NCBI GenBank assembly: GCA_934096645.1
Contig: CAKOMK010000002.1
Span: forward strand, 55,383-119,382
Direction of reading: 5' to 3'
DNA: 64,000 nucleotides
DNA from: an uncultured Bacilli bacterium
Lineage (GTDB): Bacteria; Bacillota_I; Bacilli_A; RF39; UBA660
This document shows, piece after piece, positions 4,674 to 54,013 of this stretch. Position 1 is the stretch's first letter. The number at the start of each line of letters is the position of its first letter. Made by a program: the position numbers and the translations under genes. Below the pieces are notes generated by a model, which did not search any database, was not told the origin of the DNA, and was given only the letters and a program-made list of their open reading frames with translations.

Positions 4674-5252
4674 ATGAAAATAATAAAAAGTAGAATATTT
4701 AAAGTATTAATATTGTTATTTATATTAGGACTACTATTTGGCGTGATTAGTTTTATTTTTATGGATAAAACATCATTAGAAAATTATACTCTAAATTATG
4801 TAGATTTAATAAGTAAAAATAATTTTGATTACATTAAAGGATTAATAAATACACTAATATCTAATTATAAATATTTATCTATATTATGGATATTTGGTAT
4901 TATATTCTTTTTATTTCCTTTAGTACCGTTAATAATCATTTATAGAGGTATATCAATAGGATTAATGATTAGCAGTATAATTTACTCATTTAAACTAAAA
5001 GGCTTCTTATATGCTTTAATAATGCTATTTCCAGCTAAAATAATAAATGAATTAATATATATTATAATGAGTTATTATAGTATAAGTTTTTCATTAAAAA
5101 TATATAACGCTATAAAAACAAATAAATCTATAAATATAACTTCTTTCTCTAAAAACTATTTTTATATATTATTAATATTTATAGTAGCACTAACTCTAAC
5201 AAGTATATTTGAAGTTTATTTAAGTACAAATATTATAAAACTAGTAATATAA
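4674..5252 (+). CDS. polytopic membrane protein (192 aa), SpoIIM/DUF95-like
   Basis: Five to six predicted TM helices; the family assignment is tentative. Confidence 0.45.
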   Translation: MKIIKSRIFKVLILLFILGLLFGVISFIFMDKTSLENYTLNYVDLISKNNFDYIKGLINTLISNYKYLSILWIFGIIFFLFPLVPLIIIYRGISIGLMISSIIYSFKLKGFLYALIMLFPAKIINELIYIIMSYYSISFSLKIYNAIKTNKSINITSFSKNYFYILLIFIVALTLTSIFEVYLSTNIIKLVI

Positions 5253-13481: not shown

Positions 13482-13601
13482 ATGGCAAATGCTAGAAGCA
13501 ATGCAAGAATGAATTCTAGAGCAAGAGCTAATTCTAGAAGCAAATCAAATGCTAGAAGCAACTCTAGAAGTAAAAGCAATGCATCATCAAGATGTAAATA
13601 G
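13482..13601 (+). CDS. possible 39-codon micro-ORF MANARSNARMNSRARANSRSKSNARSNSRSKSNASSRCK encoded by the repeat
   Basis: ATG with GGTGGTGA 6 nt upstream; frame preserved through all repeat units; very basic N-[AS]-R-S repeats. Confidence 0.2.
   Translation: MANARSNARMNSRARANSRSKSNARSNSRSKSNASSRCK
13483..13600. repeat. tandem 12-nt periodic repeat with palindromic core (T/G)CTAGAAG
   Basis: About six units (aatgctagaagc, aattctagagca, aattctagaagc, aatgctagaagc, aactctagaagt) separated by 6-nt inserts, all in multiples of 3; lies in the ZIP/NlpC divergent intergenic region. Confidence 0.7.
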
Positions 13602-13650
13602 TAAAAGGATATTCGTTGAATATCCTTTTATTTTATGTTACTATAGAAAT

Positions 13651-15012
13651 ATGAATAGTAAGGTAGTTAAGAAGATATTAAGTACAATTTCAATTTTAGC
13701 AGTTACATCTAGTGTAACTTATTTTGCTTTAATAAAAATATACAGAAATAACGCTTACCCTTCAATAAAAGAAGCAACAGTTAAAATAACTAACGATGGG
13801 GTATTAAATATAAAATTTAAACTTAATGAAAATAAATTAAAACATAATAAAATTTATTGTGCTGAAACAAATAATATTGAAACAACAGATAAATGGATTT
13901 TAGCAAAAAATGATGAATGTAATATCAAGGTAGATGAAAATAAATCTTATACTATATATTTAAAAAATGAAAATAATGAAGTATATAAAGTTAGTAATAC
14001 AAAAAAACTAGGAAATATATTAAGTATGAGTTTTAATAAGGAAAAAATATATTTAGCAGTTAAAGGCACTTATGCCCCTACTCTTGATATTAAATCAGTT
14101 GGATATTTTAATAAGGAAGATATAAAGTACACAATTAACGATGAAAAAATAATTTCTATAGATAAAGATTTAAAAATAACTGGTCTTAAAGTTGGAAATA
14201 CTACTTTAACTGCAGAATATAAAGGAATTAAAACATCTACAGAAATCATAGTAACAGATCTTATTACTGTAAGACCTAAAAAATATAATAGTAAAAAACC
14301 TTATCTTCCATGCGGAAAATATAATGAAGAAGAAAATGATTTACTAGATGAGATTCTTAAAGATAGAGTTGATGAAGTTGGTTATCAAACAAGAGCCAGT
14401 GCTGTTGAAGCTGCAAGATTCTTAACTTTAGAATTTCCATATAAAATTAGATATTTTTCTGAAAATGGAAGAGCTAGTACAAATGGTATTGATGGTGAAG
14501 GAAGATATTATCATAAAGGCTTATATTTAGATGAATCAAGATTTACAAATATTAAAAAGAAAATGGCTGGACCTAAAACATGGGGATGTCAATTATATAG
14601 TAGACCTTCTCATGGAAATAGACCTAATGGGCTTGACTGTAGTGGCTTTATCACTTGGGTAATGCTAAATGGTGGATGGGATGTTGGAGATATAGGTGCT
14701 GGACTTGCTTCACACTTAGATTTAACAGACTACGGAAAAAGAATCAGATTTAATGCAGATGTAGTAGCGTCAGGAAAAGTTAAAGTTGGAGATTTATTAA
14801 GTTCAGGCGGACTAAGCGGTGGCCATATAGCTATGATAGCTGGTGAAGATGACGAATATTATTATGTTGCAGAAAGTTTATGGACTCCACCAGATGTTGC
14901 TGTAATTATTAAACCTTATTCAAAGAAAACTATATTTAATCGTTACTTCTATGTAATGTTAATGGATAGTTATTATAAAGAAGATGGAAAACTAACTAAA
15001 TTATGGTATTAA
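13651..15012 (+). CDS. membrane-anchored NlpC/P60-like cell-wall hydrolase with Big-like domains (paralog 1)
   Basis: N-terminal TM anchor; Ig-like segment ITGLKVGNTTLTAEYKG; C-terminal Cys/His domain (DCSGF, GGHIAMI). Confidence 0.7.
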   Translation: MNSKVVKKILSTISILAVTSSVTYFALIKIYRNNAYPSIKEATVKITNDGVLNIKFKLNENKLKHNKIYCAETNNIETTDKWILAKNDECNIKVDENKSYTIYLKNENNEVYKVSNTKKLGNILSMSFNKEKIYLAVKGTYAPTLDIKSVGYFNKEDIKYTINDEKIISIDKDLKITGLKVGNTTLTAEYKGIKTSTEIIVTDLITVRPKKYNSKKPYLPCGKYNEEENDLLDEILKDRVDEVGYQTRASAVEAARFLTLEFPYKIRYFSENGRASTNGIDGEGRYYHKGLYLDESRFTNIKKKMAGPKTWGCQLYSRPSHGNRPNGLDCSGFITWVMLNGGWDVGDIGAGLASHLDLTDYGKRIRFNADVVASGKVKVGDLLSSGGLSGGHIAMIAGEDDEYYYVAESLWTPPDVAVIIKPYSKKTIFNRYFYVMLMDSYYKEDGKLTKLWY

Positions 15013-15013
15013 A

Positions 15014-16348
15014 ATGAAAAAAAGAACAAAAAGAGACAAAAAACTAAAATTAAAGAAAAAATATGTAAGACTATTAAGAAAAATAAAAATATTTTTTATA
15101 AAAGTATTCTTAATTCTAATAGTCATCTTTTTAATTGTATGCATATATAAAAGAATCACTACAACATATAAAGAAATCAATATAAAAGATAATACAATAG
15201 AAATAACATTATCAAGTAAATATAAAGACTCAGAATGTATATTAAGTGCCACTACCCCAACAGATAATGATAAATGGATTAAAATATCAGATAATAAATG
15301 TGTTTCAAATATAGATACAGGATATAAGTATTTATTTATAAAAAAAGATAATAAAATTAAAAGAATAGATAATATATCAAAATATAAAATAAATGAAAAA
15401 GAAAACTTATATTTACCACCAGATGGTAATTATGAATACATAAAATATTATATTGGAGATTATAATTCTATTAAACCAGAATATAATGATAAAATAATAG
15501 ACTTTGTTAATGGTAAAATATCAAGTAAATCTATTGGTTCAACTACTCTAAAAGTGAGTATAAATGATAAAAGTTATAAAATAAATGTTACAGTAACAGA
15601 TACAATAGTAACTCCTCCAAAAGACGGATATGACTATGATAAAAGATATCTAAAATGTAATGAATTTAGTGAAAAAGAAAGCAAATTATTAGATGAAATA
15701 TTAAAGAATAAAATTAATGATGCTGGTTACAAAACAAGAGCTGGTGCTGTTGAGGCAGCAAGATTCTTAACTTTAGAGTTTCCATATAGAATAAATTATT
15801 TTTATGAAAATGGCAGACAAACAACAAATAATGTAGATGGCGAAGGAAGATATTATCATGAAGGACTATATCTTTCAGAAACAAAATATCAAAGTATAAC
15901 AGGTTCTAAAACAGGTCCTAAAATGTGGGGATGTTCACTTTATAGTAATCCTGCTAAAAAATATATGGATAACGGCCTTGACTGTAGTGGATTCGTATCA
16001 TGGGCATTATTAAACTCAGGATTTGATGTTAAAGATGTTGGAGCAGGTTTTTCAGTAAATAGTGACTTAACTGACTTTGGAGATCTTAAAACTCTAACAG
16101 AGTCTCTAGCAACAAGTAACACTATTAAACCAGGAGATTTACTTCATAGTAATGCAGCTGGTGGTCATATAGCTATTATAATTGGAATAGATTCTGAATA
16201 TTATTATGTAGCGCAAGCATTATGGTATGATGAAGTTGGTGTAATAATTTCAAAATATAAAAAGAATAACTTACCTAATTCATTTAGTGAAGTTGTATTA
16301 ATGGATAAATATTATATTAATGATGGAAATCTAACATATATGTGGTAA
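15014..16348 (+). CDS. membrane-anchored NlpC/P60-like cell-wall hydrolase (paralog 2)
   Basis: C-terminal domain shares conserved blocks with 13651..15012 (RAGAVEAARFLTLEFPY, GEGRYYH, DCSGF, GGHIAII); starts 2 nt after paralog 1. Confidence 0.7.
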   Translation: MKKRTKRDKKLKLKKKYVRLLRKIKIFFIKVFLILIVIFLIVCIYKRITTTYKEINIKDNTIEITLSSKYKDSECILSATTPTDNDKWIKISDNKCVSNIDTGYKYLFIKKDNKIKRIDNISKYKINEKENLYLPPDGNYEYIKYYIGDYNSIKPEYNDKIIDFVNGKISSKSIGSTTLKVSINDKSYKINVTVTDTIVTPPKDGYDYDKRYLKCNEFSEKESKLLDEILKNKINDAGYKTRAGAVEAARFLTLEFPYRINYFYENGRQTTNNVDGEGRYYHEGLYLSETKYQSITGSKTGPKMWGCSLYSNPAKKYMDNGLDCSGFVSWALLNSGFDVKDVGAGFSVNSDLTDFGDLKTLTESLATSNTIKPGDLLHSNAAGGHIAIIIGIDSEYYYVAQALWYDEVGVIISKYKKNNLPNSFSEVVLMDKYYINDGNLTYMW

Positions 16349-29322: not shown

Positions 29323-30522
29323 ATGGAACTACTTACGAATAAATTAAGGCCTACTCATCTTAAAGATGTTTTAGGTCAAGAACACTTAATTGGTAAAAAT
29401 AAAATATTAACTAATTTAGTAAAAGAAAAAAAGTTATTTAATATAATTTTATATGGTAAAAGTGGTATTGGTAAAACAACTATAGCACTTGCTTTGATGA
29501 ACGAATTTAATCAAAGATATAGAGTTCTTAACGCTACTATTAATTCAAAAAAAGATTTTGAAGTTGTTATTGAAGAAGCAAAGCTTTATAAAGGTATTAT
29601 ATTAATAGTGGATGAAATTCACAGAATGAATAAAGATAAACAGGATATACTACTCTCTTACATTGAAAGTGGTTTAATAACTTTAATAGGTCTTACAAAT
29701 TCTAATCCATATCATTCAATTAATCCTGCTATAAGAAGTAGATGTCAATTACTAGAATTACATTCACTTACAGAAAAAGATGTAGAAAAAGGTTTAAAAC
29801 GAGTAAAAGAAGTATTGCCAGATATAATAATGGACAATAAAACTATAAAGTATATAGCTACTCTATCAGATGGTGATATAAGATATGCTTATAATCTAGT
29901 AGAATTTACTTATTATGGTTACAATAAAGAAGTCACAATAGAAAATATAAAGGAAACAAATAACACACCATCATTCTTTACAGATAAAAATGAAGATGGT
30001 CACTATGATATGCTATCAGCATTTCAAAAAAGTATTAGAGGAAGTGACGTAGATGCAGCCCTTCACTATTTAGGAAGACTTATAGTTAGTGGAGATTATG
30101 ATTCAATTTATAGAAGAATGCTAGTAACTGCATACGAAGACATAGGTCTTGCAAATCCAAGTATTGGACCAAAAGTAGTTGCAGCTATAGAAGCAAGTGA
30201 AAGAATTGGTTATCCAGAATTAGTAAAACCATTAAGCGTTGCAATAATAGATATGGCACTAAGTCCAAAAAGCAATTCAGCAGATTCAGCAATAATGTCT
30301 GCTATAAATGATATAAATGCTGGAAATGTCGGAAGAATACCAGAACACATAAAAACAACTTCACCTAATTACAAATACCCACACAACTACCCTAATTATT
30401 GGGTAGACCAACAATATATGCCAGACAATTTAATTGGTAGAAAATACTATTCACCAAGAAATAACAAATATGAAACTGAAATGACAAAATTTAACAACTC
30501 AATAAAAAATTATAAGAAATAA
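29323..30522 (+). CDS. rarA: replication-associated recombination protein A (MgsA/RarA AAA+ ATPase)
   Basis: LRPTHLKDVLGQEHL, Walker A GKSGIGKTT, Walker B LIVDEIHR. ATG at 29323 with AAGGTGA RBS. Confidence 0.85.
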   Translation: MELLTNKLRPTHLKDVLGQEHLIGKNKILTNLVKEKKLFNIILYGKSGIGKTTIALALMNEFNQRYRVLNATINSKKDFEVVIEEAKLYKGIILIVDEIHRMNKDKQDILLSYIESGLITLIGLTNSNPYHSINPAIRSRCQLLELHSLTEKDVEKGLKRVKEVLPDIIMDNKTIKYIATLSDGDIRYAYNLVEFTYYGYNKEVTIENIKETNNTPSFFTDKNEDGHYDMLSAFQKSIRGSDVDAALHYLGRLIVSGDYDSIYRRMLVTAYEDIGLANPSIGPKVVAAIEASERIGYPELVKPLSVAIIDMALSPKSNSADSAIMSAINDINAGNVGRIPEHIKTTSPNYKYPHNYPNYWVDQQYMPDNLIGRKYYSPRNNKYETEMTKFNNSIKNYKK

Positions 30523-30540
30523 ATCTTATAATTTTTATTT
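30511..30540. terminator. bidirectional terminator shared by convergent rarA and hydrolase paralog A
   Basis: 11-bp perfect inverted repeat aaattataaga/tcttataattt flanked by A and T runs, spanning both stop codons; duplicated at 34708..34740. Confidence 0.5.
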
Positions 30541-32946
30541 TGTTATCTTATTAAATCCATCAAATTTAGAAATAAAATCATTATAACTAGAAGTATTAAA
30601 ATAGCTATCTTTAAATATAACTTTAACATATTGTCCTTCACACTTAATACTTTTTATCATATCAGAACTATATCCTTGAGTAATCTTATTTAAACTTGAT
30701 AATGCTTTATCAGGATTTCCAAAATCAAAGTAATGTTCAACGCTAGTAACTGAGTTATTATCATGATTAATTATTATTTTATAACTTGAGTCTAGTGAAC
30801 TATATACATCAGTATTATTATCACTTACTACACTACTATATTCAGGAAATTCAACTGTATCATTTGAAGGTGTTAATGTGCCTGAATCAATTATGTCAGG
30901 GTTTGATGGAGCACTTGGAGCACTAGGAGAATATCCACTATTTCCACTAGAACTTCCACTAGAAGTGTTACTTCCTGTATTACTATTTGAATTGCTTACA
31001 TTTCCAGTACCACCAGTATTACCATAATTATTTTGATTATTACTAGTATTAGTATCTGATGGTTTATTTTCATCTTTGGAGTCTTTTGGTCCTACTTCAG
31101 TTTTATCAGCATTTACTGTACTTGAAGCATTTGACTTATTTGAGTCATTATTACTTTGATTTGTAGAATTATCTCTTCTATCTTTATTATTGCCATTATT
31201 TAACTTAGTGTTTTCTTTAGCATTACTAGCTTTAACATCACTATTGCCTTTTTCTTCACTAGGTTTTTTCGCATCATCATACTTTATATTTTTATTTACT
31301 GTACTAGACATGTTAGCTTCATCTACTTTTTCTTGTTCATCTTTAACTTCATTGCCTTTTAAATCAGTTTCACTTACTTCAGTTTCAACATCAACATCAT
31401 ATTCATCTTTATTTTTTTCAAATTCATCAATTCTTCCTTTTATGTAGTCATCAATAAATTTATCTTTATCTTTTCCACTAAGGCCTTTACTTTCAGCTTC
31501 TTTGTTTGCTTCTTCGCCATAATATTTTTCAAAAAGCTTAGCAGTTTCTGAGTCAATATACTCTTGTTTTTTAGTACCAGTATATCCAAGAGCATCAGCA
31601 GCAGCTCCCAAACCAGCAATGGCTCCAGCAAGAACAGCATCAGTTGTGTTTCTTCCGCCGGCCAAGTCTTCAGCTCTATCTTTAATATTATCTTCAGTAG
31701 CTTCTATTTCAATTTGAGCATGCATAGCAAATTCAACGCATTCAAGAGTCTTAAACAATAATTCACTTGTCTTAGCAACATATTCCATAATTTTAACGTC
31801 TTGAATTTTAGGAGAATTTGTAGTACTTGCATAATCTACAGTAATTTTTAGATTTTTTATTCTAGTACCATTTATTTTGCTAGTTAAAGCTTGAATTTTC
31901 TCTGCTAAAAATCCAGCATCAGTAGTCAAGAATTCACTCATCATACCATTTATATTATCTAAAGATTCTCTCATATGCATGTTATAAGACTCATATTCTT
32001 TTTTATATTTCTCATACATGGCATCTATTTGTTCTGGAGTAAATGTTGGTATTTTTCCTTCAGAAATTAAATTTTGTCTCATAATTCTGATAGCTTCATT
32101 AACATCATCAAATGGAACAAAATTACCATTCTCATCAAATTTATAAAATCCTAAAGCAGAAGGTATTTCATCAGTTTGACCATTTAAAAATGCAAGTAAA
32201 TTATCTTGAAAAACAGTAGCAGGAGTTTCACCATGATCCCCAGGAATTTCAATAATGACTAAAGGAATACCAGCCGCAGCTATTTCTTTATAATGTTGTG
32301 AAGTTTTATATTGATCTGGTAAAGTCTCAACAGATTCAAATGCCATTATAACCGTACCATTTTCTTTCATTAAATTAAGGTTTTCTTCACTAGTATCTAA
32401 TTGACCTCCATTCCATTGAAGATCAAGAAAAACCATAGTTTGTGGTTCTAAATCAGGATTATTTCTAATCTTGTCAAGAGTTCTTGTATAAACAGTACCT
32501 CCACCTTCACTCCAACCAATACAAGTGTGTGAATTAAAAGCGTTCTCACCATAAATAGCTTCTATAGTACGCAACCCTAATTCATTTTTATCATCAGAAG
32601 AAGTCATACAAAAAATCGCATCGTTATTCTCATCTATAGCATTAGTAATAGCATTATCTACTACATAACTTCCAGAAGCACCTCTCGAAGTAATACCACA
32701 AGGATTATAATAAGTATAAGACTTAGTATTCTCATCTATTTTCGCAGGTAAATATATTTCAAACATATTACTATTTAAATCTGTAGTAGAAGTAATAACT
32801 ACTTTATCGCTGCCTTCAACAGGAGCAACGCTAATGCCAATTTCAGTTCCCTCATATTCTGCTATAATATCATTATATGCTCTTAACTGATCTTCTGTCA
32901 TAAAAGAAGTATCAACATTTTCATTTGTACTCATAAAATACCTCAC
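30535..32946 (-). CDS. modular protein, paralog A (803 aa): alpha/beta-hydrolase-like domain, conserved helical module, S/N/T/G linker, conserved C-terminal domain
   Basis: No signal peptide. Serine elbow IGWSEGG (S146) and His in PGDHGE. Helical module at aa ~335-545 (MSEFLTTDAGFLAEKIQALTSKINGT...AGAIAGLGAAADALGYTG). Low-complexity linker at aa ~545-680. C-domain at aa 680-803. GAGGT RBS. Confidence 0.75.
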   Translation of the reverse strand: MRYFMSTNENVDTSFMTEDQLRAYNDIIAEYEGTEIGISVAPVEGSDKVVITSTTDLNSNMFEIYLPAKIDENTKSYTYYNPCGITSRGASGSYVVDNAITNAIDENNDAIFCMTSSDDKNELGLRTIEAIYGENAFNSHTCIGWSEGGGTVYTRTLDKIRNNPDLEPQTMVFLDLQWNGGQLDTSEENLNLMKENGTVIMAFESVETLPDQYKTSQHYKEIAAAGIPLVIIEIPGDHGETPATVFQDNLLAFLNGQTDEIPSALGFYKFDENGNFVPFDDVNEAIRIMRQNLISEGKIPTFTPEQIDAMYEKYKKEYESYNMHMRESLDNINGMMSEFLTTDAGFLAEKIQALTSKINGTRIKNLKITVDYASTTNSPKIQDVKIMEYVAKTSELLFKTLECVEFAMHAQIEIEATEDNIKDRAEDLAGGRNTTDAVLAGAIAGLGAAADALGYTGTKKQEYIDSETAKLFEKYYGEEANKEAESKGLSGKDKDKFIDDYIKGRIDEFEKNKDEYDVDVETEVSETDLKGNEVKDEQEKVDEANMSSTVNKNIKYDDAKKPSEEKGNSDVKASNAKENTKLNNGNNKDRRDNSTNQSNNDSNKSNASSTVNADKTEVGPKDSKDENKPSDTNTSNNQNNYGNTGGTGNVSNSNSNTGSNTSSGSSSGNSGYSPSAPSAPSNPDIIDSGTLTPSNDTVEFPEYSSVVSDNNTDVYSSLDSSYKIIINHDNNSVTSVEHYFDFGNPDKALSSLNKITQGYSSDMIKSIKCEGQYVKVIFKDSYFNTSSYNDFISKFDGFNKITK

Positions 32947-33014
32947 TTATTCTAATAATAGGATACTACGTAATTAGTAAAAAGTAAATGAAATTTGATT
33001 TAGATGACAAAACA

Positions 33015-33045
33015 AAGACAATAAAAAAGATAGTAATTTTACTAT
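33015..33045 (-). terminator. terminator of hydrolase paralog B
   Basis: 9-bp stem agatagtaa/ttactatct followed by T6 on the minus strand. Confidence 0.5.
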
Positions 33046-33051
33046 CTTATG

Positions 33052-34647
33052 CTATTTACCACTAACTGATGTTTCTGTAACAGTAGTACTATCTACAGTA
33101 GCATTAACATCTGTATTACTCATAATTCTTTCATAATTATCTCTTACTGCATCTAAATAATCATCAACAAATTTATCAGCCTCAGTTCCAGTTAATCCCT
33201 TTTCATTAGCCGCATTACGAGCTTCTTCTCCATATAAGTTTTCATATGTTAAATCTGTTAATCTTTCGAGTTCTTTAGCTCTCTCAGCATCAGATAAAGA
33301 TGGATCTATAGTAAAAGGTAAACCTGCAAGAGCTCCAGTTAAAACACTAAAGTCACTAACCTCAGTTCCACCTAAATTAGCAGCTTCGTTATTTAAGTCT
33401 CTTTCTGTCTCTTGTAACTTTAATTGTGCATCCATAGCTTGTTTTGTAAAAGATAATACATTGTCAAGCATTTTTAAGGTATTAACTTTATATTCTAACA
33501 TTTTAATATCTTGAATTTTAGGTGAACTAGTTGTACTAGCATATTGATTTGCAATAACTAAATCTCTTATTTTTGTATTATTAATAACAGAAACAATTGA
33601 ATTAATTTTATCTGCTAAAAATCCAGCATCAGTACTTAAAAATTCTTCCATTATACCATTAATTGAAGAAATAGTAAGTTTAATATTCTTCCCAATAAAA
33701 ATTGATTGTCTAATATAATGGTTTGACATATGAGTAACATCAGCTAAATCAAAAATAATATCATTTCCAAACATAATCTCGCAAAAAGCCATTCTTTGTT
33801 CTTGTGGATCAGTAATTAATACTCTTTCACCATCTTTATCATATTTATAAAGTTTATAAGACATATTATAATCTTTACCACCATGCGTGATTTTACTAGG
33901 TAAACCAAGTATATCAAATGAACCATTGCTAAGACCCCATAATTCACTATCAGCATTTAAAGATCTAACAAATCCATGGGAATCTCTATTATCTTTCTCA
34001 GCAGTATATTCAATATAATAAACAGTTAAACCTTGCTTAGCAAATTCAGAAATATCACCTTGAGCCCTCTTGAAAACATCACCATCAAATACATCAGGAT
34101 TAGTATCAAAATACACAAGTGGTGTTTTTGTTTTTATTAAATTATTTATTTCCTCTTGAGTAAGTTTAACATTATTATATATATCTCTTGGTTCCATTAA
34201 AACAGGAATAAAATTATATCCTCTTTCTATACAATTAGCTGCTACAGAATGCATTGTATTTCCAAAACTAGCACTATATCCTTGATAAACAACAGTAGTA
34301 TCAGCTATACAGGGATTGCTGTCCTTAATACAATCAATAACATCTAAACCTTTTGTCATCCAGTCATCCGTATTGCCCAAATGTATAGGCGACAAAATAA
34401 TAGTATTGCTTTGATTATCAACTACATGATTAAACACTTCGTTGCAGTCATCAATTCCTCCTCCACCTCTACCAGCAATTTGGATACCTGTATCATAATC
34501 AATCTCTTCTGGCATATAAACACGAAACTCACTATCGCCATAACCAACTCTAACAGTTCCTTCAGTTCCAGGTTCAATTTGAGACAATTGGTTTTTAATA
34601 CTATCTATATCTTCTTGAGATAAATTACTCAAATCCATATTATGCAC
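33052..34647 (-). CDS. modular protein, paralog B (531 aa): divergent alpha/beta-hydrolase-like domain plus the conserved helical module only
   Basis: Serine elbow QGYSASFG and His in ITHGGKDY. Helical module IMEEFLSTDAGFLADKINS... at aa ~334-531. Ends right after the module with no linker or C-domain. Confidence 0.7.
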   Translation of the reverse strand: MHNMDLSNLSQEDIDSIKNQLSQIEPGTEGTVRVGYGDSEFRVYMPEEIDYDTGIQIAGRGGGGIDDCNEVFNHVVDNQSNTIILSPIHLGNTDDWMTKGLDVIDCIKDSNPCIADTTVVYQGYSASFGNTMHSVAANCIERGYNFIPVLMEPRDIYNNVKLTQEEINNLIKTKTPLVYFDTNPDVFDGDVFKRAQGDISEFAKQGLTVYYIEYTAEKDNRDSHGFVRSLNADSELWGLSNGSFDILGLPSKITHGGKDYNMSYKLYKYDKDGERVLITDPQEQRMAFCEIMFGNDIIFDLADVTHMSNHYIRQSIFIGKNIKLTISSINGIMEEFLSTDAGFLADKINSIVSVINNTKIRDLVIANQYASTTSSPKIQDIKMLEYKVNTLKMLDNVLSFTKQAMDAQLKLQETERDLNNEAANLGGTEVSDFSVLTGALAGLPFTIDPSLSDAERAKELERLTDLTYENLYGEEARNAANEKGLTGTEADKFVDDYLDAVRDNYERIMSNTDVNATVDSTTVTETSVSGK

Positions 34648-34666
34648 ATCCTATTCTTATATCAAA

Positions 34667-34694
34667 ATTATAACATGAAAACTTGATATGTAAA
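34667..34694 (-). promoter_or_regulatory. promoter of paralog B
   Basis: Minus-strand TTTACA, 16-nt spacer, extended -10 TGTTATAAT, about 20 nt upstream of the ATG. Confidence 0.45.
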
Positions 34695-34736
34695 ACTCCA
34701 AAATAAAAAAATTATAAGAAATAAATCTTATAATTT

Positions 34737-37205
34737 TTATTTTGTTATCTTATTAAATCCATCAAATTTAGAAATAAAGTCATGATAACTAGAAGTATTA
34801 AAGTAACTATCTTTAAATATAACTTTAACATATTGTCCTTCACACTTAATACTTTTTATCATATCAGAACTATATCCTTGAGTAATCTTATTTAAACTTG
34901 ATAATGCTTTATCAGGATTTCCAAAATCAAAGTAATGTTCAACGCTAGTAACTGAGTTATTATCATGATTAATTATTATTTTATAACTTGAGTCTAGTGA
35001 ACTATATACATCAGTATTATTATCACTTACTACACTACTATATTCAGGAAATTCAACTGTATCATTTGAAGGTGTTAATGTGCCTGAATCAATTATGTCA
35101 GGGTTTGATGGAGCACTTGGAGCACTAGGAGAATATCCACCATTTCCATATGAACTTCCACTACCAGAACCATTACTTCCTGCATTATTATTTGAATTGC
35201 TTACATTTCCAGTACCATTTGAATTCCAAGAATTATTTTGGTTATTACCACTATTTGTATTAGTTTCCTCCGTTTTATTGCTATCGTTAGAAGTACCATT
35301 ATCAGTTCTATCTGTACTTACTGTACTAGAAGCATTTGATTTATTAGAATTATTATTTTGATTTGTAGAACTATTAGAATTTTCTCCTCTATCTTTATTA
35401 TTGTGGCTATTTAACTTAGTTTCTTCTTTAGATTCACTAGGTTTAGTATCACTATTGCCCTTATTATCAGTACCAGGTTTCTTCGCATCATCATACTTTA
35501 TATTTTTATTTACTGTACTTGATACATTTGATTTATTTGAACTATTATCATTTTTATCTTTATTTACAACGCTAGACATATTTTCCATGTCTGCTTTTTC
35601 TTCTTTAGCTTTAACTTCATTACCTTTTAAATCAGTTTCACTTGCTTCAGTTTCAACATCAACGTCATATTTATCTTTATTTTTTTCAAATTCTTTAATT
35701 CTTTCTTTTATATAATCGTCAACAAATTTATCTTTTTCTTCCCCAGTAAGTCCTTTACTTTCAGCTTCTTTGCTTGCATCAGCTCCATAATACTTCTCAT
35801 AAAGTTTTGCAGTTTCAGCATCAATATACTCTTGTTTTTTAGTACCAGTATATCCAAGAGCATCAGCAATACTATCTAATCCTGCAATAGCACCAGCAAG
35901 AGCAGCATCAGTTACACCTCCACTAGGAGCCAAATCAGCTGCATCTTTATCAACTTCATTTTCTGTTGCTTCAATTTCCAATTGAGCATGCATAGCAAAC
36001 TCAACACATTCAAGAGTTTTTGCAAGCAATTCACTTGTCTTAGCAATATACTCCATAATTTTAACATCTTGCATCTTTGGAGAGTTTGTAGTACTAGCAT
36101 AATCAGTAGTAACTTTAATATCTTTTATTTTAGTACCATTTATCTTACTAGTTAGTGCTTGAATTTTATCTGCTAAAAATCCAGCGTCAGTTGATAAGAA
36201 TTCACTTAACATCTTATTTATTCTTTCTTGAGATAATTTGATATTTAAATTATATAAAGCATTATCATCTTTTAGCTTATTATATAACTGATCAATATCA
36301 CTTAATTCAAACATAGGCGTTTTAACCATGTCATCAAAGTATTTTGTAGCTTCTTCATAAGATAAATCTTTTTTCTTCCATTCACCAGTCTCAGGATCTT
36401 CTACAAAAATATAAAAATGGTTAAGTTTATCTTTAAAATCTTCTGTCAAATCACCTTTTCCAAGAATCCAATTCAAATAATTGTTATAGTATGGAGTTTT
36501 ACATTTCCCATCATGACTAACAGCATAATCTATATAAAATGTTTCACCACCTAATGAAGCCCAATGTCTAAATACTCTAACAGCATCAGGATTTCCATTA
36601 CTACCATCAGATGTAACTCCAACTAATTTCATGCCTTTATTAATCATAGCTAAATAATCATCATCAGAATTCGGTATATAATACATGCTTCTTTCTGGAT
36701 GATAACTATCTCCAAGAGATAAAGTAGAAATATGATATTTATATGTTCCATCTTCGGCTACACTATAATTTCTAGCAAGAGCAAAAGCAGAACCTCCACC
36801 AGCACTAACTCCAGCAACAGTTACATTATCCCAGTCACCAGGTATTATATCAGATAAACTATTTAATGTGTTTGCTGCCTCTTTTCCACTATAATAATAA
36901 GAACCCCCTGGAAATATTAAAATAGTATTATTATTACAGTTTAATTCATTAAGACTCACACAGTTTCTACTAGAATAATCATCGTCCATTCCCTTATAAT
37001 AAACAACAATTTGAGTATTCTCATCTATATGATCAGGCATATAAATTTGAGCACCAACTTCACTATCCCCAGTAGGTGTATATTCTCCAACATTCCAACT
37101 TATAGATCCAGAATCATTATAAGTTTTATGTTCAGTTTCTATACCATTTATATTATTAGTACGTGTAAAATCAGCACTATCTTGATATCCTGTATTATTA
37201 TTCAT
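34737..37205 (-). CDS. modular protein, paralog C (822 aa): alpha/beta-hydrolase-like domain, conserved helical module, S/N/T/G linker, C-terminal domain near-identical to paralog A
   Basis: No signal peptide. Serine elbow AGVSAGGG (S134) and His in VSHDGK. Helical module from aa ~334 (MLSEFLSTDAGFLADKIQALTSKINGT). The last ~133 aa are almost identical to paralog A at both protein and DNA level. AGAGGTG RBS. Confidence 0.75.
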   Translation of the reverse strand: MNNNTGYQDSADFTRTNNINGIETEHKTYNDSGSISWNVGEYTPTGDSEVGAQIYMPDHIDENTQIVVYYKGMDDDYSSRNCVSLNELNCNNNTILIFPGGSYYYSGKEAANTLNSLSDIIPGDWDNVTVAGVSAGGGSAFALARNYSVAEDGTYKYHISTLSLGDSYHPERSMYYIPNSDDDYLAMINKGMKLVGVTSDGSNGNPDAVRVFRHWASLGGETFYIDYAVSHDGKCKTPYYNNYLNWILGKGDLTEDFKDKLNHFYIFVEDPETGEWKKKDLSYEEATKYFDDMVKTPMFELSDIDQLYNKLKDDNALYNLNIKLSQERINKMLSEFLSTDAGFLADKIQALTSKINGTKIKDIKVTTDYASTTNSPKMQDVKIMEYIAKTSELLAKTLECVEFAMHAQLEIEATENEVDKDAADLAPSGGVTDAALAGAIAGLDSIADALGYTGTKKQEYIDAETAKLYEKYYGADASKEAESKGLTGEEKDKFVDDYIKERIKEFEKNKDKYDVDVETEASETDLKGNEVKAKEEKADMENMSSVVNKDKNDNSSNKSNVSSTVNKNIKYDDAKKPGTDNKGNSDTKPSESKEETKLNSHNNKDRGENSNSSTNQNNNSNKSNASSTVSTDRTDNGTSNDSNKTEETNTNSGNNQNNSWNSNGTGNVSNSNNNAGSNGSGSGSSYGNGGYSPSAPSAPSNPDIIDSGTLTPSNDTVEFPEYSSVVSDNNTDVYSSLDSSYKIIINHDNNSVTSVEHYFDFGNPDKALSSLNKITQGYSSDMIKSIKCEGQYVKVIFKDSYFNTSSYHDFISKFDGFNKITK

Positions 37206-37227
37206 AAAACACCTCTATTATTAATCA

Positions 37228-37262
37228 ATTATAACACACATAAAAAGACAAGAAAATAAAAA
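37228..37262 (-). promoter_or_regulatory. promoter of paralog C
   Basis: Extended -10 TGTTATAAT on the minus strand about 20 nt upstream of the ATG; the -35 region overlaps the T-run of the tcdA terminator. Confidence 0.4.
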
Positions 37263-37291
37263 GACATAAAATTTGCTATAAAATTATGTCT
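37240..37291 (-). terminator. terminator of the ThiF-family gene
   Basis: Stem agacataa/ttatgtct overlapping the stop codon, followed by TTTTTATTTTCTTGTCTTTTT on the minus strand. Confidence 0.5.
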
Positions 37292-37967
37292 ATTTTTTAA
37301 TTACATCATTAATAATATAATTTGTAATAAATAATCCAGCAGTTGCAGGAACAAAAGATGTAGAACCAAGCATTTTAGTATTAATAGGTTTTTCATCACT
37401 TGTTACAACTGTAACATCTTTCATTAAAACTCTATCTTTTCCTAAATCATGTCTTATCTTTTTAGCAAGTGGATCAGTTTCTGTTTTATCAAGAGTAGTA
37501 ATTCTAACACGAGTAGCATCTATTTTATTTGCTGTTCCCATACTAGAAACTAATTTAATTCCTTTATCATGACATTCTCTAATTAATTTAACTTTAACTT
37601 TTGTAGTATCACAAGCATCAATAATATAATCATATTTATATGTAAATAAACATTCTATATTATCTTCTGTTATATGAGTATTTATAATACTAACATTAGC
37701 ATCTTTATTAATTAGTTTGATACGTTTTTTCCATTCTCTTGTCTTATATTTATTATTATTTCTAGATGTAGCAATTATTTGTCTATTAATATTACTTGGT
37801 TTAATAGTATCACTATCTACTAGTGTAATATTTCCAACACCACATCTAATCAAAGACTCTATAACGTATCCTCCAACACCTCCAAGACCAATTATTAATA
37901 CATTTAATTTCTTAATCTTTTCAATGTTTTCTTCTCCGATTAGACTCTCAAGTCTACACAAATTCAT
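37290..37967 (-). CDS. tcdA: ThiF/MoeB-family protein, likely tRNA threonylcarbamoyladenosine dehydratase (TcdA/CsdL)
   Basis: Nucleotide-binding LIIGLGGVGGYVIESL and the SD...NRQ motif; 225 aa. Confidence 0.6.
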   Translation of the reverse strand: MNLCRLESLIGEENIEKIKKLNVLIIGLGGVGGYVIESLIRCGVGNITLVDSDTIKPSNINRQIIATSRNNNKYKTREWKKRIKLINKDANVSIINTHITEDNIECLFTYKYDYIIDACDTTKVKVKLIRECHDKGIKLVSSMGTANKIDATRVRITTLDKTETDPLAKKIRHDLGKDRVLMKDVTVVTSDEKPINTKMLGSTSFVPATAGLFITNYIINDVIKK

Positions 37968-37993
37968 ACTTTTTGCCTCCTAAAAGCACGAAT

Positions 37994-38002
37994 ATTATAG
38001 CA
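37994..38002 (-). promoter_or_regulatory. extended -10 (TGCTATAAT) of the tcdA promoter
   Basis: Minus-strand TGCTATAAT about 25 nt upstream of the AGGAGG RBS. Confidence 0.4.
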
Positions 38003-38024
38003 TAAAAAAAACCTAGTGTAAATA

Positions 38025-38112
38025 TAGTGTAATAAATCTCGCGCTCGACGAGGTGGTAGATCACACGATATGTCTGGGATCTTGATATAAAATCAATATT
38101 CAACGCCGCATA
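38025..38112. ncRNA. GC-rich structured element of unknown identity between metK and tcdA
   Basis: About 88 nt with local GC far above the ~25% background (ctcgcgctcgacgaggtggtagatcacacg...caacgccgcataccgattagttcccc). Contains the hairpin ttgat-ataaaa-atcaa and paired G/C segments. No match to riboswitch consensus sequences I can recall. Confidence 0.25.
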
Positions 38113-38227
38113 CCGATTAGTTCCCCTATAATATTACATAGTCGGTTTATTGTGTCTATATTAATCATCTAGGTTAATTAAAGTTTATCATATAAAAATA
38201 TTTAAGTCTATGCTTTGAAAATAAACT

Positions 38228-39265
38228 TTACACTATTTTATTATAATCAACGAAATGACCATATTTAGCAGTGTCAACATAACATTTATTAAGTAAATCT
38301 AAATCTTCAATTATGTTATTTGGTTCACATTCAGCATATAATGAACCACTTACATCAATATCGCCTTTATCACTAGTTATGTATATAGCAAGGGGTTTTC
38401 TTATTCCAATAGCATAACTAAGTTGAACTTGACACCACCTTAAATTATATTTTTTCAAATAATCAACTGCTATATTTCTAGCTTTATAAGCAGCACTTCT
38501 ATCTACTTTAGATGGATCTTTACCACTAAAAGCTCCACCACCCACTGGAGCAAATCCCTGATATGAATCAACAACAATTTTTCTTCCAGTAAGTCCAGAG
38601 TCACCCTCAAAACCACCTATTTCAAATCTACCAGTTGGATTAATAAGAAACATTTCTATTTTAACATTATATTTTTCACAAATAGATAGGCAAATAGTTT
38701 TAATAATTTTATCTGTTTCTTCTCTTTCTTTTTCAGTATTTTGATAAGAAATAGTAAAATCTTTAATACTTAGTAGTTTCATATTTTCATCATATACTCC
38801 AGTAATTTGAGCTTTACCATCAGCATGAAATCTTTTATCTTTTTTTCTTAATTCATCATACTTAATTGATAATTCAGAAAGTATCATCATAGCTGTAGGT
38901 AAATAATATGAGTTATCATTACAAGCATAACCAAACATCATGCCTTGATCTCCAGCTCCGCCAACTTCTTTATTAGTTCCAAGAGCAATATCATTACTTT
39001 GAATACCTATATTATTTATAATCTTATACTTTTTATAGTAACCAATATCATTCAAAGTCTCATTTACTACTTTTTCAACATCTACAACACTTTTAGATGT
39101 AACTTCTCCAGTTATAAATATTACTCCTTTACCTCCACAAACTTCAATAGCGCATCTACTATCTTTATCCCCTTTTAAATATTCATCTAATAAAGCATCA
39201 CTTATCTGATCACATACTTTATCAGGATGACCTCTAAAAACAATTTCATTACTGTATAACTTCAT
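38228..39265 (-). CDS. metK: S-adenosylmethionine synthetase
   Basis: Motifs GHPDKVCDQISDA, GAGDQGMMFGYA, GGGAFSGKDPSKVDRSAAY; GGAGG RBS; 345 aa. Confidence 0.85.
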   Translation of the reverse strand: MKLYSNEIVFRGHPDKVCDQISDALLDEYLKGDKDSRCAIEVCGGKGVIFITGEVTSKSVVDVEKVVNETLNDIGYYKKYKIINNIGIQSNDIALGTNKEVGGAGDQGMMFGYACNDNSYYLPTAMMILSELSIKYDELRKKDKRFHADGKAQITGVYDENMKLLSIKDFTISYQNTEKEREETDKIIKTICLSICEKYNVKIEMFLINPTGRFEIGGFEGDSGLTGRKIVVDSYQGFAPVGGGAFSGKDPSKVDRSAAYKARNIAVDYLKKYNLRWCQVQLSYAIGIRKPLAIYITSDKGDIDVSGSLYAECEPNNIIEDLDLLNKCYVDTAKYGHFVDYNKIV

Positions 39266-39289
39266 AATTTCCTCCTTTCAGTAATAATT

Positions 39290-39418
39290 ACCTTAAAAAG
39301 AAAAAATACCTAAGATAACCTTAAGTATTAAAAGCTATCCTCATCCATCTGGGTTTACCACCTAATCAAATAGGTTGGTGTGATCTACGAGCCAGTCTCT
39401 AAATCACTCTTTATAAGG
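39290..39418 (-). promoter_or_regulatory. SAM-I (S-box) riboswitch with terminator in the metK leader
   Basis: Minus-strand read CTTATAAAGAGTGATTTAGAGACTGGCTCGTAGATCACACCAACC...GGTGGTAAACCCAGATGGATGAGGATAG. It matches the S-box core (AGAGnnnnAGnGACTGGC, CAACC, GGTGnnAAnnCC, AGATGAG). A hairpin plus TATTTTTTCTTTTT follows. Confidence 0.6.
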
Positions 39419-39449
39419 TAATATAAAATTGTTGTCCTAAGACATAAAT

Positions 39450-39480
39450 ATTATAACATAAAATGCATAAAATGTAATAT
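39450..39480 (-). promoter_or_regulatory. promoter of the metK leader
   Basis: Minus-strand TTACAT, 16-nt spacer, extended -10 TGTTATAAT just upstream of the riboswitch. Confidence 0.4.
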
Positions 39481-40780
39481 GTTAAATAAAATAAAAGACA
39501 ATATTTTTTTCAAATCAGCATTTTTACTATTAATTGGTGGAACTCTAACTAAACTAGTTGGTTTTATTCTAAAAATAATTATAACTAGAAAAATTGGTAC
39601 AGAAGGTATAGCTATTTATAGTCTATTATCCCCTACCATATCATTATTAACAGTAATAGCTACATTTAGTTATCCAACAGCATTATCAAAAATAATATCA
39701 GAAAGACAAACAAACTCAAAATCATTATTTTATTCTACAATAATACTTTCTTTTATAATAAATATTATAGTTATTTTAGTCACTATTTTATTTGCTCCAA
39801 TATTATCAAATAATCTATTAAATGAAAGTAGACTTTATTATCCAATAATATGTATAAGTTTAACTATGCCTTTTATAAGTATATCTTCTATCATAAAAGG
39901 TTATTTTTGGGGAAAACAAAATATGTTCCCCTATATGTTATCCAATTTTATAGAACAATTAACAAGATTATCTTTAATACTGTTTTTCCTAACAAAAATA
40001 TTTTATAAAGGATTAGTATTTTCAATATGTTTTTTATTTATAGTAAATATGATTGGTGAAGTGGTCTCACAAATAATAATGATTCTTTTTATGCCAAAAA
40101 ATTATTTAAATTTCAAGAATATAAAAATAGATTCAAAAGATATAAAAAGTATTTTAAATATATGTATACCATGTACATCAAGTAAAATAATTGGCTCAAT
40201 ATCATATTTTTTTGAACCAATAGTTTTAACTAATGTTTTAATATTTATGGGTTATTCAAATGAATATGTAATTTATGAATATGGTATCATAAACGCATAT
40301 GCTCTTTCACTACTATTAATGCCTCAATTCTTTACTCAAAATATGTCAACAGCTTTAATACCAGAATTATCAAAACATTATAGCTATGGCAATAAAAAAA
40401 TGTGTAAAAAAAGAATAAAAGAAATACTTTTAGTCTCTTGTTTTATTGGTTTAATATCAACAATTATAATTAGTGTATTCCCTAAATTCTTTTTAAGTAC
40501 TTTATATCATACTACTGAAGGATATGATTATATTAAGATATTATCTCCATTTGTAATATTATTCTATGTAGAATATCCTCTAATGAGTTCTCTTCAAGCA
40601 TTAGGAAAAAGTAAAGAAGCTATGAAATGTACAATAACTTCTTCAATAATAAGACTATTTTCCATAGCAATACTTTCACTATTAAAAATAGGTATCTATA
40701 GTTATATATTATCAATAATAGTTAATCTTCTAGTATCAACTTACCTTTATTATAAAGAAGTCAAAAAAGTATTAGCTTAA
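39479..40780 (+). CDS. MOP-superfamily (Wzx/MurJ/SpoVB-like) polysaccharide/lipid-II flippase
   Basis: 433 aa with about 12-14 TM helices; N-terminal LLIGGTLTKLVGFILKIIITRKIGTEGIAIY is typical of MOP flippases. Confidence 0.6.
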   Translation: MLNKIKDNIFFKSAFLLLIGGTLTKLVGFILKIIITRKIGTEGIAIYSLLSPTISLLTVIATFSYPTALSKIISERQTNSKSLFYSTIILSFIINIIVILVTILFAPILSNNLLNESRLYYPIICISLTMPFISISSIIKGYFWGKQNMFPYMLSNFIEQLTRLSLILFFLTKIFYKGLVFSICFLFIVNMIGEVVSQIIMILFMPKNYLNFKNIKIDSKDIKSILNICIPCTSSKIIGSISYFFEPIVLTNVLIFMGYSNEYVIYEYGIINAYALSLLLMPQFFTQNMSTALIPELSKHYSYGNKKMCKKRIKEILLVSCFIGLISTIIISVFPKFFLSTLYHTTEGYDYIKILSPFVILFYVEYPLMSSLQALGKSKEAMKCTITSSIIRLFSIAILSLLKIGIYSYILSIIVNLLVSTYLYYKEVKKVLA

Positions 40781-53155: not shown

Positions 53156-54013
53156 ATGAAAAAATTTAGTATTTTATTAATAGGTATACTATTACTTAGT
53201 GGATGTAGTTTTAATGATGATTTTAGTGACAAACTTATTTATACAACATCTTATCCAATTGAATATGCAACAAGTATGTTATATGGCGATTATGGTAAGA
53301 TATCAAGTGTTTATCCTAACGGAGCTGACACTAAATATGAAGTAACTGAAAAGAAAAAAGATATTTATTCTAAAGGTGAAAAATTTATCTATTCAGGTAT
53401 TGCAAACGAAGGATATCTAGCAAGAGACTTACTTAATAAAAATGGAAATCTTCAAATAATAGATGCTACTAAAGGATTACAAGCATCAACAACAATTACT
53501 TCTTCTTGGTTAGATCCTTCAAACTATTTAATGCTATGTAGTAATATTAAATCTGGATTAATCGATTATACAAGTAATGTTTATACAAAAGAAAATATAG
53601 AAAAGAATTATAACTTATTAAATGAAAAAGTATCAGAATTAGATGTAGCTTTATATGATATAGGTAAAAATGGTAACTATAACACTATTCTTACTACAAG
53701 CAATGTATTTAATTATTTAACTAAATATAATATAAACGTTATATCACTTGATACTAACAACGATGCAATAGATAGAGCTTATTCAGATGCAAAAAAAGCA
53801 ATATCAGATAAAAGTATTCAATATATTTATTATATCGAAGGTGACGAATTTAATGAACAACAAGAAAAACTAGTAACAGACAATAGTTTAGTTAAAGTAG
53901 CTATAAATAATTTATTTACACTAAGTGATGAAGAAAGAAATGAAAATAAAAACTACATCACACTTATGAATGAAATAATAGAAAATTACAAAAAAGAATT
54001 ATATAAAAAGTAA
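53156..54013 (+). CDS. lipoprotein of unknown function
   Basis: Lipobox LLSGC after the signal peptide; 285 aa. Confidence 0.5.
   Translation: MKKFSILLIGILLLSGCSFNDDFSDKLIYTTSYPIEYATSMLYGDYGKISSVYPNGADTKYEVTEKKKDIYSKGEKFIYSGIANEGYLARDLLNKNGNLQIIDATKGLQASTTITSSWLDPSNYLMLCSNIKSGLIDYTSNVYTKENIEKNYNLLNEKVSELDVALYDIGKNGNYNTILTTSNVFNYLTKYNINVISLDTNNDAIDRAYSDAKKAISDKSIQYIYYIEGDEFNEQQEKLVTDNSLVKVAINNLFTLSDEERNENKNYITLMNEIIENYKKELYKK

Follow-up and report, generated by a model that had tools for sequence, protein, structure and literature searches.

Where do three adjacent paralogous enzymes without any recognizable export signal act, and what does the helical module that they have in common do for them? 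The question is raised by a tandem array on the minus strand of a 64-kb stretch of DNA (the window; coordinates count along the whole of it) from an uncultured, very AT-rich human-gut Firmicute. Open reading frames (ORFs) at 30535–32946 (A, 803 amino acids, aa), 33052–34647 (B, 531 aa) and 34737–37205 (C, 822 aa) lie side by side, as the initial annotation had described, and the protein alignment bears out the domain order proposed there: a variable alpha/beta-hydrolase domain in front, then a conserved helical module and, optionally, a disordered linker with a conserved C-terminal domain. With no recognizable export signal, the architecture would represent a novel form of modular envelope enzyme anchored by its tail. 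We tentatively interpret the array as a group of diversifying, signal-less serine esterases that are associated with the envelope and have a common clade-specific targeting or retention module, an interpretation that we favor while giving it somewhat less than an even chance. The same three genes, between a thiF-like gene and rarA, were found in several independent human-gut metagenome assemblies; because order and place recur across these contigs, the array is not an assembly artifact.

Domain architecture and diversification of the array

For A and B, the true start codons are likely to be ATG 32934 (MSTNEN, 799 aa) and ATG 34638 (MDLSNL, 528 aa), respectively, based on the N-termini of homologues and on Shine–Dalgarno-like sequences ahead of both codons; the A orthologues P0008–P0019 begin with MSTN or MSEN. 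Genes and domains are arranged as follows (pLDDT, predicted local distance difference test; module identities from tblastn):

30535..32934, minus strand: gene A, 799 aa (ORF reaches GTG 32946); N-domain type A, helical module, linker and C-terminal domain
32053..32934, minus strand: A N-domain (aa 1–294), alpha/beta-hydrolase type A with GWSEG elbow, AFES(V)E and GDHG
31378..32055, minus strand: A helical module, 72% identity to the C module
30904..31377 (approximate ends), minus strand: A linker, S/N/T/G-rich and of low complexity, assigned by analogy with the C linker, which is modelled as disordered
30538..30903, minus strand: A conserved C-terminal domain with lead-in, 99% (protein) and 97–100% (DNA) identical to that of C
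33052..34638, minus strand: gene B, 528 aa (ORF reaches GTG 34647); N-domain type B and helical module, without linker or C-terminal domain
33766..34638, minus strand: B N-domain (aa 1–291), alpha/beta-hydrolase type B with GYSAS elbow, YFDTNPD and DSHG
33103..33756, minus strand: B helical module, 40% identity to the C module; model helices at 298–334, 339–353, 373–422, 450–479 and 484–508
34737..37205, minus strand: gene C, 822 aa; N-domain type C, helical module, linker and C-terminal domain
36324..37205, minus strand: C N-domain (aa 1–294), alpha/beta-hydrolase type C with GVSAGGG elbow, GVTSDGS and SHDG
35646..36323, minus strand: C helical module (aa 295–520), six helices in the model, the last two at pLDDT 83–86
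35106..35645, minus strand: C linker, S+N+T+G = 57%, predicted to be disordered (pLDDT ~30)
34740..35105, minus strand: C conserved C-terminal region with a ~100-aa alpha+beta domain of topology b-b-b-b-a-b-b-a (pLDDT 63–80)

The N-domains (heads) hardly align with one another (23–33% identity over partial stretches, E 0.02–0.1, by tblastn within the window), and the A head matches a B-type head on another contig (L009) at E = 1.6e-9. The G-x-S-x-G/S serine elbow and downstream histidine first read from the sequence (GWSEG, GYSAS, GVSAG) are present in all three heads and conserved within each type; in full, the nucleophile elbows are GWSEGGG (A), GYSAS (B) and GVSAGGG (C), with GWSLG in the homologue P0025. 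Candidate acid and histidine motifs, FES/GDHG (A), FDT/DSHG (B) and TSD/SHDG (C), are also type-conserved and are not cleanly alignable between types. In the AlphaFold model of B (11 sequences; mean pLDDT 60, parts of the head higher), strands and helices of the head alternate, and the head is assigned to the alpha/beta-hydrolase fold, which has a central, mostly parallel sheet with alternating helices; the A head would have the same fold, judging from the B model and the weak homology between types.

The best structural matches of the head are esterases of polyhydroxybutyrate (PHB)-depolymerase, feruloyl and carbohydrate-esterase type, including LpqC (3d0k) and the feruloyl esterases 8bbp and 7xrt, at 9–15% identity; "lipase," as the enzymes had first been called, is therefore too specific. 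Esterases of the PHB-depolymerase family and of CE1 type are usually Sec-secreted or plainly cytoplasmic and single-domain, and none has this helical module. Unlike them, the array heads fall below the thresholds of the Pfam and NCBIfam families: a Pfam scan of A, B, and C gave no match at E≤1, no curated esterase or lipase family of either database reached threshold, and the sole NCBIfam match was a sub-threshold one over 27 residues at the elbow of the C head. On the evidence of fold and elbow, the heads are probably very divergent serine esterases of the alpha/beta-hydrolase superfamily that lie outside the curated families.

Heads and tails have been exchanged among the homologues. P0012 has a B-type head on an A/C-type module, spacer and C-terminal domain, whereas P0024 combines an A-type head with a B-type tail. 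In P0006, a C-type head and the module are followed by an N-rich spacer and a LysM domain (PF01476), which replaces the ~105-aa C-terminal domain; LysM is absent from A, B, and C themselves (Pfam scan). The sister metagenome-assembled genome (MAG) GCA_964490375.1 (labelled "uncultured Clostridium sp."), in which the rarA, xerD, and deoB genes barely differ from their counterparts in the window, is implied to hold at least five to six tandem copies, because each of its short contigs opens with the tail end of the paralog before it. One of these contigs has two B-type heads (70 and 52% identical to B). On contig L007 (688–3554), a B-type gene lies directly beside rarA with no A-type gene between, and the A-type heads are on other contigs; thus, array order and content vary between close relatives.

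A further trace of exchange is found within the window. DNA identity between A and C climbs from 5' to 3', from 43–53% in the head to 73–89% in the module, 69–85% in the linker and 97–100% in the C-terminal domain (last ~400 nt); the last 300 nt are 99% identical, against ~45% in the heads, and the nearly identical C-terminal stretch covers ~120 residues, including the ~105-aa domain. Such a gradient would be expected if the 3' ends had recently undergone gene conversion or recombination. Beyond the stop codons, the 99%-identical repeat continues for another 31 nt, which at A take in the final 19 nt of the convergent rarA, its stop included, so that a fragment of the rarA 3' end is duplicated behind C (34706–34724 vs. 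30504–30522). Because the post-stop repeat at A contains the genuine rarA 3' end, the A locus was the source of the copy and the C locus its recipient.

The helical module and its remote relatives

The module comprises ~220 aa, from about residue 295–335 to about residue 520, with dense identity at ~330–520 in all three proteins. That one helical module stands behind each variable domain, as originally proposed, is confirmed by many invariant columns across A, B, and C, among them the blocks EFL[ST]TDAGFL, YASTT.SPK.QD.K..EY, L.GA.AGL, and KGL.G...DKF.DDY. Scans of the three proteins against Pfam, NCBIfam, PHROG, and PADLOC gave nothing at or near threshold, leaving the module without relatives there, and searches of the PDB sequences with protein C and with a module profile also found no relative. 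HMMER, run exhaustively with a profile of the module against 1.84 billion cluster representatives, returned 10 matches at E≤1e-3, five of them full-length family members; P0029 (a repeat protein) and P0026 and P0028 (chimeric fragments) were judged uninformative. Word-indexed homologue searches recovered the close family only, plus fragments. The module is carried by 2 of 185,579 species-representative genomes and occurs at two near-identical loci in the JGI metagenomes (241 million records), and no match was found in viral contigs scanned for the module and for the P0027 and P0031 class; the sequences of a broader alignment (A4) diverged too far to serve as the seed of a profile scan. The module is thus among the most narrowly distributed domains. 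Like the ~105-aa C-terminal domain, it is restricted to the clade and has no annotation in Pfam, NCBIfam, PHROGs, or the PDB.

Among the cluster representatives, the module has just two distant relatives, P0027 and P0030 (E 1.9e-6 and 9e-4), proteins of 455–469 aa without signal peptides that have an N-terminal GH73-type glucosaminidase domain (PF01832, E 1e-21 to 1e-23). The segment behind the glucosaminidase aligns with the first ~110 module residues (FL..DA.FL...IN.T...Y.ST..S...D....Y...A..L), and the C-terminal part consists of a low-complexity spacer, a G/A-rich hydrophobic segment and then lysines. The GH73 glucosaminidases of the clade resemble the array proteins in their order of enzyme, helical region, low-complexity spacer and hydrophobic segment or LysM, and in the lack of a signal peptide; P0027 and P0030 differ from them in having another enzyme head, in being single-copy at a conserved miaB–frr locus, and in lacking the second module half and the ~105-aa C-terminal domain. 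P0030 is encoded between a miaB-like gene and frr-pheST. At the same miaB-like/frr spot, related genomes (Frr 90–94% identical to that on the P0030 contig; RuvB 74% identical to that of the window) encode signal-less glucosaminidases of 700–840 aa (P0042, P0037) with a different long helical region and, at the C-terminus, either a G/A-rich hydrophobic segment or LysM. Based on these same-position glucosaminidases, the plan of a signal-less envelope enzyme with helical region, spacer and anchor recurs in the clade, and the array can be seen as one version of that plan. Across the glucosaminidase loci of related low-GC gut Firmicutes (L011 10001–11410, L014 7235–12454 and L015 10001–12106), the helical region and spacer diverge fast, and L014 has two signal-less glucosaminidase genes in tandem (838 and 817 aa).

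The most hydrophobic 19-mer of A, B, and C is an internal G/A-rich stretch of the module (Kyte–Doolittle 1.2–1.5). As a transmembrane (TM) anchor it is unlikely in B and C (1.19, with Asp or Pro within the segment) and borderline in A (1.48). A G/A-rich stretch is the most hydrophobic segment both in the three array proteins and, at the C-terminus, in P0027, P0030, P0031, and P0044. It is followed by a similar motif in A (ALGYTGTKKQEY, residues 433–460), P0030 (GVGYAGKKTYDK), P0031 (ATAYGAKKYLEK) and P0044 (AAAYGAKKYMDK). By HMMER, the likeness of this segment between the window proteins and the glucosaminidase C-termini is not significant, and it could reflect either homology or convergence on a glycine-zipper-like membrane segment. 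A speculative extension, which we consider rather unlikely, is that the module (with its G/A-rich segment and GY.G.KK..Y-like stretch) is a previously unrecognized export or anchoring device for signal-less proteins, used for the housekeeping glucosaminidase and the polymorphic esterase array alike; such a device would amount either to a new pathway altogether or to an internal and highly divergent form, without partners, of the "reverse" targeting domain of a type VII secretion system (T7SS).

Location and role of the encoded proteins

A, B, and C have no Sec signal peptide, lipobox, or N-terminal TM segment, in agreement with the initial annotation: their N-termini are polar, and there is no hydrophobic 19-mer in the first 100 residues. 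Other window proteins carry classical signals, such as MKKFSILLIGILLLSGC at 53156. An N-terminal double-glycine leader ("LSQEDIDSI") was considered and rejected by eye, as the GG cleavage motif is missing. An envelope or extracytoplasmic role is the most economical explanation, given the replacement of the C-terminal domain by LysM in P0006 and the presence of the module in peptidoglycan glucosaminidases as well; spacers rich in Ser, Thr, and Pro and the fast modular diversification seen among the tandem paralogs support the same conclusion. The suggestion that the genes might be a "surface or housekeeping lipase set," put forward initially as a fallback, comes closer to this interpretation than the toxin comparison made alongside it, apart from the word "lipase."

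We propose that alpha/beta-hydrolase heads of at least three very divergent types are mounted on a clade-specific module of ~220 aa, which may end without a tail, continue into an S/N/T/G-rich spacer and a small alpha+beta domain or, in a sister genome, into a spacer and LysM. The helical module would be a common device that brings varied heads to the envelope or holds them there, bypassing an N-terminal Sec signal, and the C-terminal domain would be a wall-binding anchor with a LysM-like role. The substrate may be an ester in dietary, host or wall glycans and not a membrane lipid. The array evolves through tandem duplication, through swaps of heads and tails among its paralogs, and through gene conversion in the 3' region.

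Several observations weigh against this proposal. No export signal or export machinery was found, which keeps our support tentative, and we infer the extracytoplasmic location from the features listed above. LysM is known solely from a homologue and is absent from A, B, and C; for the C-terminal domain, no known fold gave a significant match, so that its putative wall-binding role leans solely on its interchangeability with LysM; and a tail is missing altogether from B and from several homologues. Irrespective of where a protein is located, N-rich spacers of low complexity are frequent in genomes of very high AT content. The link to P0027 and P0030 has modest E-values and covers the first ~110 module residues only. 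The catalytic Ser-acid-His triad consists of candidate residues from sequence motifs, and the AlphaFold models of B and C are of low confidence (mean pLDDT 60 and 51, respectively; 11–12 sequences each).

An alternative is that the proteins are cytoplasmic esterases that never leave the cell, in which the module would serve for oligomerization or scaffolding and the spacer would be a by-product of an AT-rich genome. The absence of signal peptide, TM segment and lipobox is what would be expected of such enzymes; every domain is acidic, no secretion genes lie nearby, the neighbors are housekeeping genes with conserved synteny, and the helical part is structurally similar to generic coiled coils and helical bundles (model comparison). 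The LysM-tailed homologue P0006 and the presence of the module in glucosaminidases that act on peptidoglycan speak against this alternative. Moreover, spacers such as "SPSAPSAPS" that are rich in Ser, Thr, and Pro, shuffling of heads and tails, and rapid diversification are more typical of exposed proteins, and it would be uncommon for a cytoplasmic esterase to occur as three to six paralogs that diverge from one another. We therefore regard a cytoplasmic location as unlikely, though still worth serious consideration.

The initial annotation saw the nearest known architecture in TslA, with its LXG-like C-terminal domain; on such a reading, the array proteins would be reverse-arrangement T7SS substrates, each with an antibacterial or host-directed toxin head and an LXG-like module, and with the secretion system encoded elsewhere in the genome. 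Tsl1 (TslA) and Tsl2 (TslM) are reverse-arrangement type VIIb secretion system lipase toxins of Staphylococcus aureus, the loci of which have adjacent Lap/WXG100 partner genes and immunity gene clusters as defining companions (PMC10730906, PMC13560087). The gross order is the same: a signal-less alpha/beta-hydrolase comes first and an all-helical domain second (PMC10730906, PMC13560087). As with Tsl1 and Tsl2, there are several non-identical paralogs per genome, with copy number varying between genomes (PMC13560087); some Tsl2 members carry a linker, as do A and C, and T7SS variants are widespread in Bacillota (PMC11217815). In addition, the invariant L-x-G-A-x-A-G-L of the module is located in the turn that joins two long helices, and P0037, which occupies the position of P0030 in a related genome, has a sub-threshold Pfam match to LXG in its helical region (residues ~338–417; PF04740, E 0.004, 17.5 bits against a cutoff of 26.5). 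This match covers profile positions 117–195 of 202, around L-Q-G-E-E-W in SNLQGEEWDIIRNKCNEF (the equivalent in P0044 is ESLQGRAWNTIRKKMDEY), and P0037 may thus have an internal LXG-like domain within a glucosaminidase. This hint is not transferable to the module, because hhalign found no significant similarity between the module and the P0037-class helical region (probability <1%, P = 0.076).

The direct comparisons do not uphold kinship with TslA or LXG proteins. Neither A, B, and C nor the isolated module gave a Pfam match to LXG (PF04740) or WXG100 even at E≤10, no PDB sequence or profile match was obtained, Foldseek returned 0 matches against the PDB at E≤1e-3, and the low-confidence models gave no detectable similarity of the module to the helix-turn-helix fold of LXG and EsxA proteins with its LXG or GXL motif. 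In contrast to the Tsl1 and Tsl2 loci, where both companions are constant, no Lap/WXG100 partner or immunity cluster lies beside any paralog in the window or in the related contigs. The 105- and 89-bp gaps of the array contain no small ORFs, immunity-like repeats are lacking, and its flanks are housekeeping genes, so the earlier remark that small immunity-like or WXG100-like genes are missing in and beside the array holds. Small ORFs were also absent from the intergenic gaps (12–105 bp) of the window and the syntenic contigs, and neither DUF576 lipoproteins nor DUF1433 membrane proteins occur in the flanks (thiF-like, metK, rarA, xerD-like, and deoB genes). Genes for an EssC-like ATPase, WXG100, EsaA, EssB, and YukD-like proteins are lacking within the 64-kb window. 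The heads are variable, as in polymorphic toxins, but no adjacent small gene was present at the loci examined; together with the stable housekeeping location, which is a conserved neighborhood and no island, the lack of adjacent immunity and partner genes argues against an antibacterial toxin cassette.

Further differences concern the enzymes themselves. The array head resembles carbohydrate- or PHB-depolymerase-type esterases, whereas the TslA head is cited as a fungal-type lipase, and in A and C the module is internal, with a long spacer and a further domain (or, in P0006, LysM) behind it, unlike known reverse substrates. YxxxD/E and FxxxD motifs in the module were not used as evidence, as such motifs are to be expected by chance in an acidic helix. 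Taken together, a T7SS role for these proteins is distinctly unlikely.

Envelope enzymes without signal peptides are known from another context. Pneumococcal LytA and phage endolysins have an N-terminal catalytic head, a C-terminal wall-binding tail, and no signal peptide. The array proteins could be wall enzymes of this kind, released by lysis of some cells or through a holin-like pore and rebinding to walls via the C-terminal domain or LysM. The array layout agrees with that of LytA and endolysins, with the head first and the binding tail last; the LysM variant P0006 fits this pattern, and PHROG places the glucosaminidase head of the related P0030 with families of phage endolysins (E 2e-20). 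Unlike LytA and the endolysins, however, the array proteins have a 220-aa helical module between head and tail, which is foreign to that architecture and left unexplained by it, and their head is an esterase and not a peptidoglycan hydrolase. The window has no holin or prophage context, the families are absent from the viral contigs scanned, A, B, and C have no PHROG match, and B has no binding tail; we consider this route highly unlikely. In the FtsEX-controlled cell-wall hydrolases PcsB and CwlO, an enzyme is likewise joined to a long helical domain, and PcsB (4cgk) was a weak, non-significant Foldseek match (E 0.55); both differ from the array proteins in having signal peptides and a coiled coil before the enzyme.

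Transcription, genomic setting and implications

The earlier proposal that each gene has its own promoter and terminator is borne out for all three terminators and for the promoter elements of B and C; a promoter ahead of A is less clear. An AT-rich hairpin with a U-tract lies 3' of each gene (free energies of −8.3, −8.5, and −8.3 kcal/mol, z about −3). None of the three was called by an automated terminator scan, which requires three G-C pairs and therefore missed them.

30507..30534, minus strand: terminator hairpin and U-tract after A, −8.3 kcal/mol, z −3.3, overlapping the 3' end of the convergent rarA
33015..33048, minus strand: terminator hairpin and U-tract after B, −8.5 kcal/mol, AT-rich
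34709..34736, minus strand: terminator hairpin and U-tract after C, −8.3 kcal/mol, a duplicate of the hairpin after A
34667..34694, minus strand: sigma-70-type promoter of B, TTTACA, 16-nt spacer, TATAAT with TG extension, 11 of 12 matches
37228..37236, minus strand: extended −10 element TGTTATAAT upstream of C, read by eye, downstream of the terminator-like hairpin (folded) of the thiF-like gene

The sigma-70-type promoters suggest vegetative expression of B and C and are thereby weak evidence against a role confined to sporulation. It is very improbable that the array proteins are sporulation enzymes that the mother cell, where no signal peptide is needed, produces and places on the spore surface or cortex in the manner of spore-coat LysM proteins and coat lipases or esterases. 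In favor of this alternative, LysM proteins that lack a signal peptide are typical of spore coats, the P0006 LysM has its best NCBIfam match in the SafA/ExsA spore-coat subfamily (E 5e-10, below cutoff), the window has a SpoIIM-family gene and a related genome a YunB gene; against it, such SpoIIM-family proteins also occur outside spore formers, the promoter elements of B and C are good vegetative ones, and there is no sporulation regulon context.

The SpoIIM-family membrane protein is encoded at 4674–5252 on the plus strand (PF01944, E 4e-12, above cutoff), and the YunB gene lies at L015 605–1276; the former hints that the organism is a spore former or descended from one. The window otherwise holds ordinary Firmicute housekeeping genes, including deoB, a xerD-like gene, rarA, metK, a MurJ/SpoVB-type flippase gene, tgt, queA, smc, rnc, ruvAB, sigma factor genes, and a trxB-like gene, identified by eye with support from Pfam and precomputed annotation. 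A possible phase-variation system with invertible promoters near the xerD-like gene was dismissed, as the inverted repeats there are terminator palindromes only. Directly upstream of metK (38228–39265, 345 aa) is an S-adenosylmethionine (SAM) riboswitch at 39338–39419 on the minus strand (RF00162, 45.5 bits, just over the gathering score). A 790-aa sigma-70-family protein is encoded at 10219–12591 on the minus strand, with regions 1.2 to 4 at ~207–469 and unusual extensions of ~200 aa (N-terminal) and ~320 aa (C-terminal). The plus-strand genes at 13549–15012 and 15014–16348 encode tandem paralogs of 487 and 444 aa with N-terminal membrane anchors and a common C-terminal region containing "GLDCSGF," NlpC/P60-like by eye, and represent another duplicated envelope-enzyme pair. 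G+C content is 24% for the window and ~30% for the array; positions 30001–38000 reach ~28–30%, against ~21–26% for nearly all of the window, the nearest values being those of 38001–40000 (27.1%) and 14001–16000 (26.8%). The raised G+C of the array could stem from its amino acid composition (rich in Gly, Ala, and Ser) or from foreign origin.

Whatever the location of its products, the array is a clear small example of head and tail shuffling and gene conversion among tandem paralogs, and the module adds a domain family beyond the current coverage of Pfam, NCBIfam, PHROGs, and the PDB. If the proteins are cytoplasmic, they would represent a lineage-specific esterase family of limited interest. 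If they are extracytoplasmic, this clade exports sizeable folded enzymes, both the esterases and a conserved glucosaminidase, without a Sec signal or visible T7SS partners, and the array would offer a concrete handle on non-classical secretion and anchoring in uncultured gut Firmicutes.

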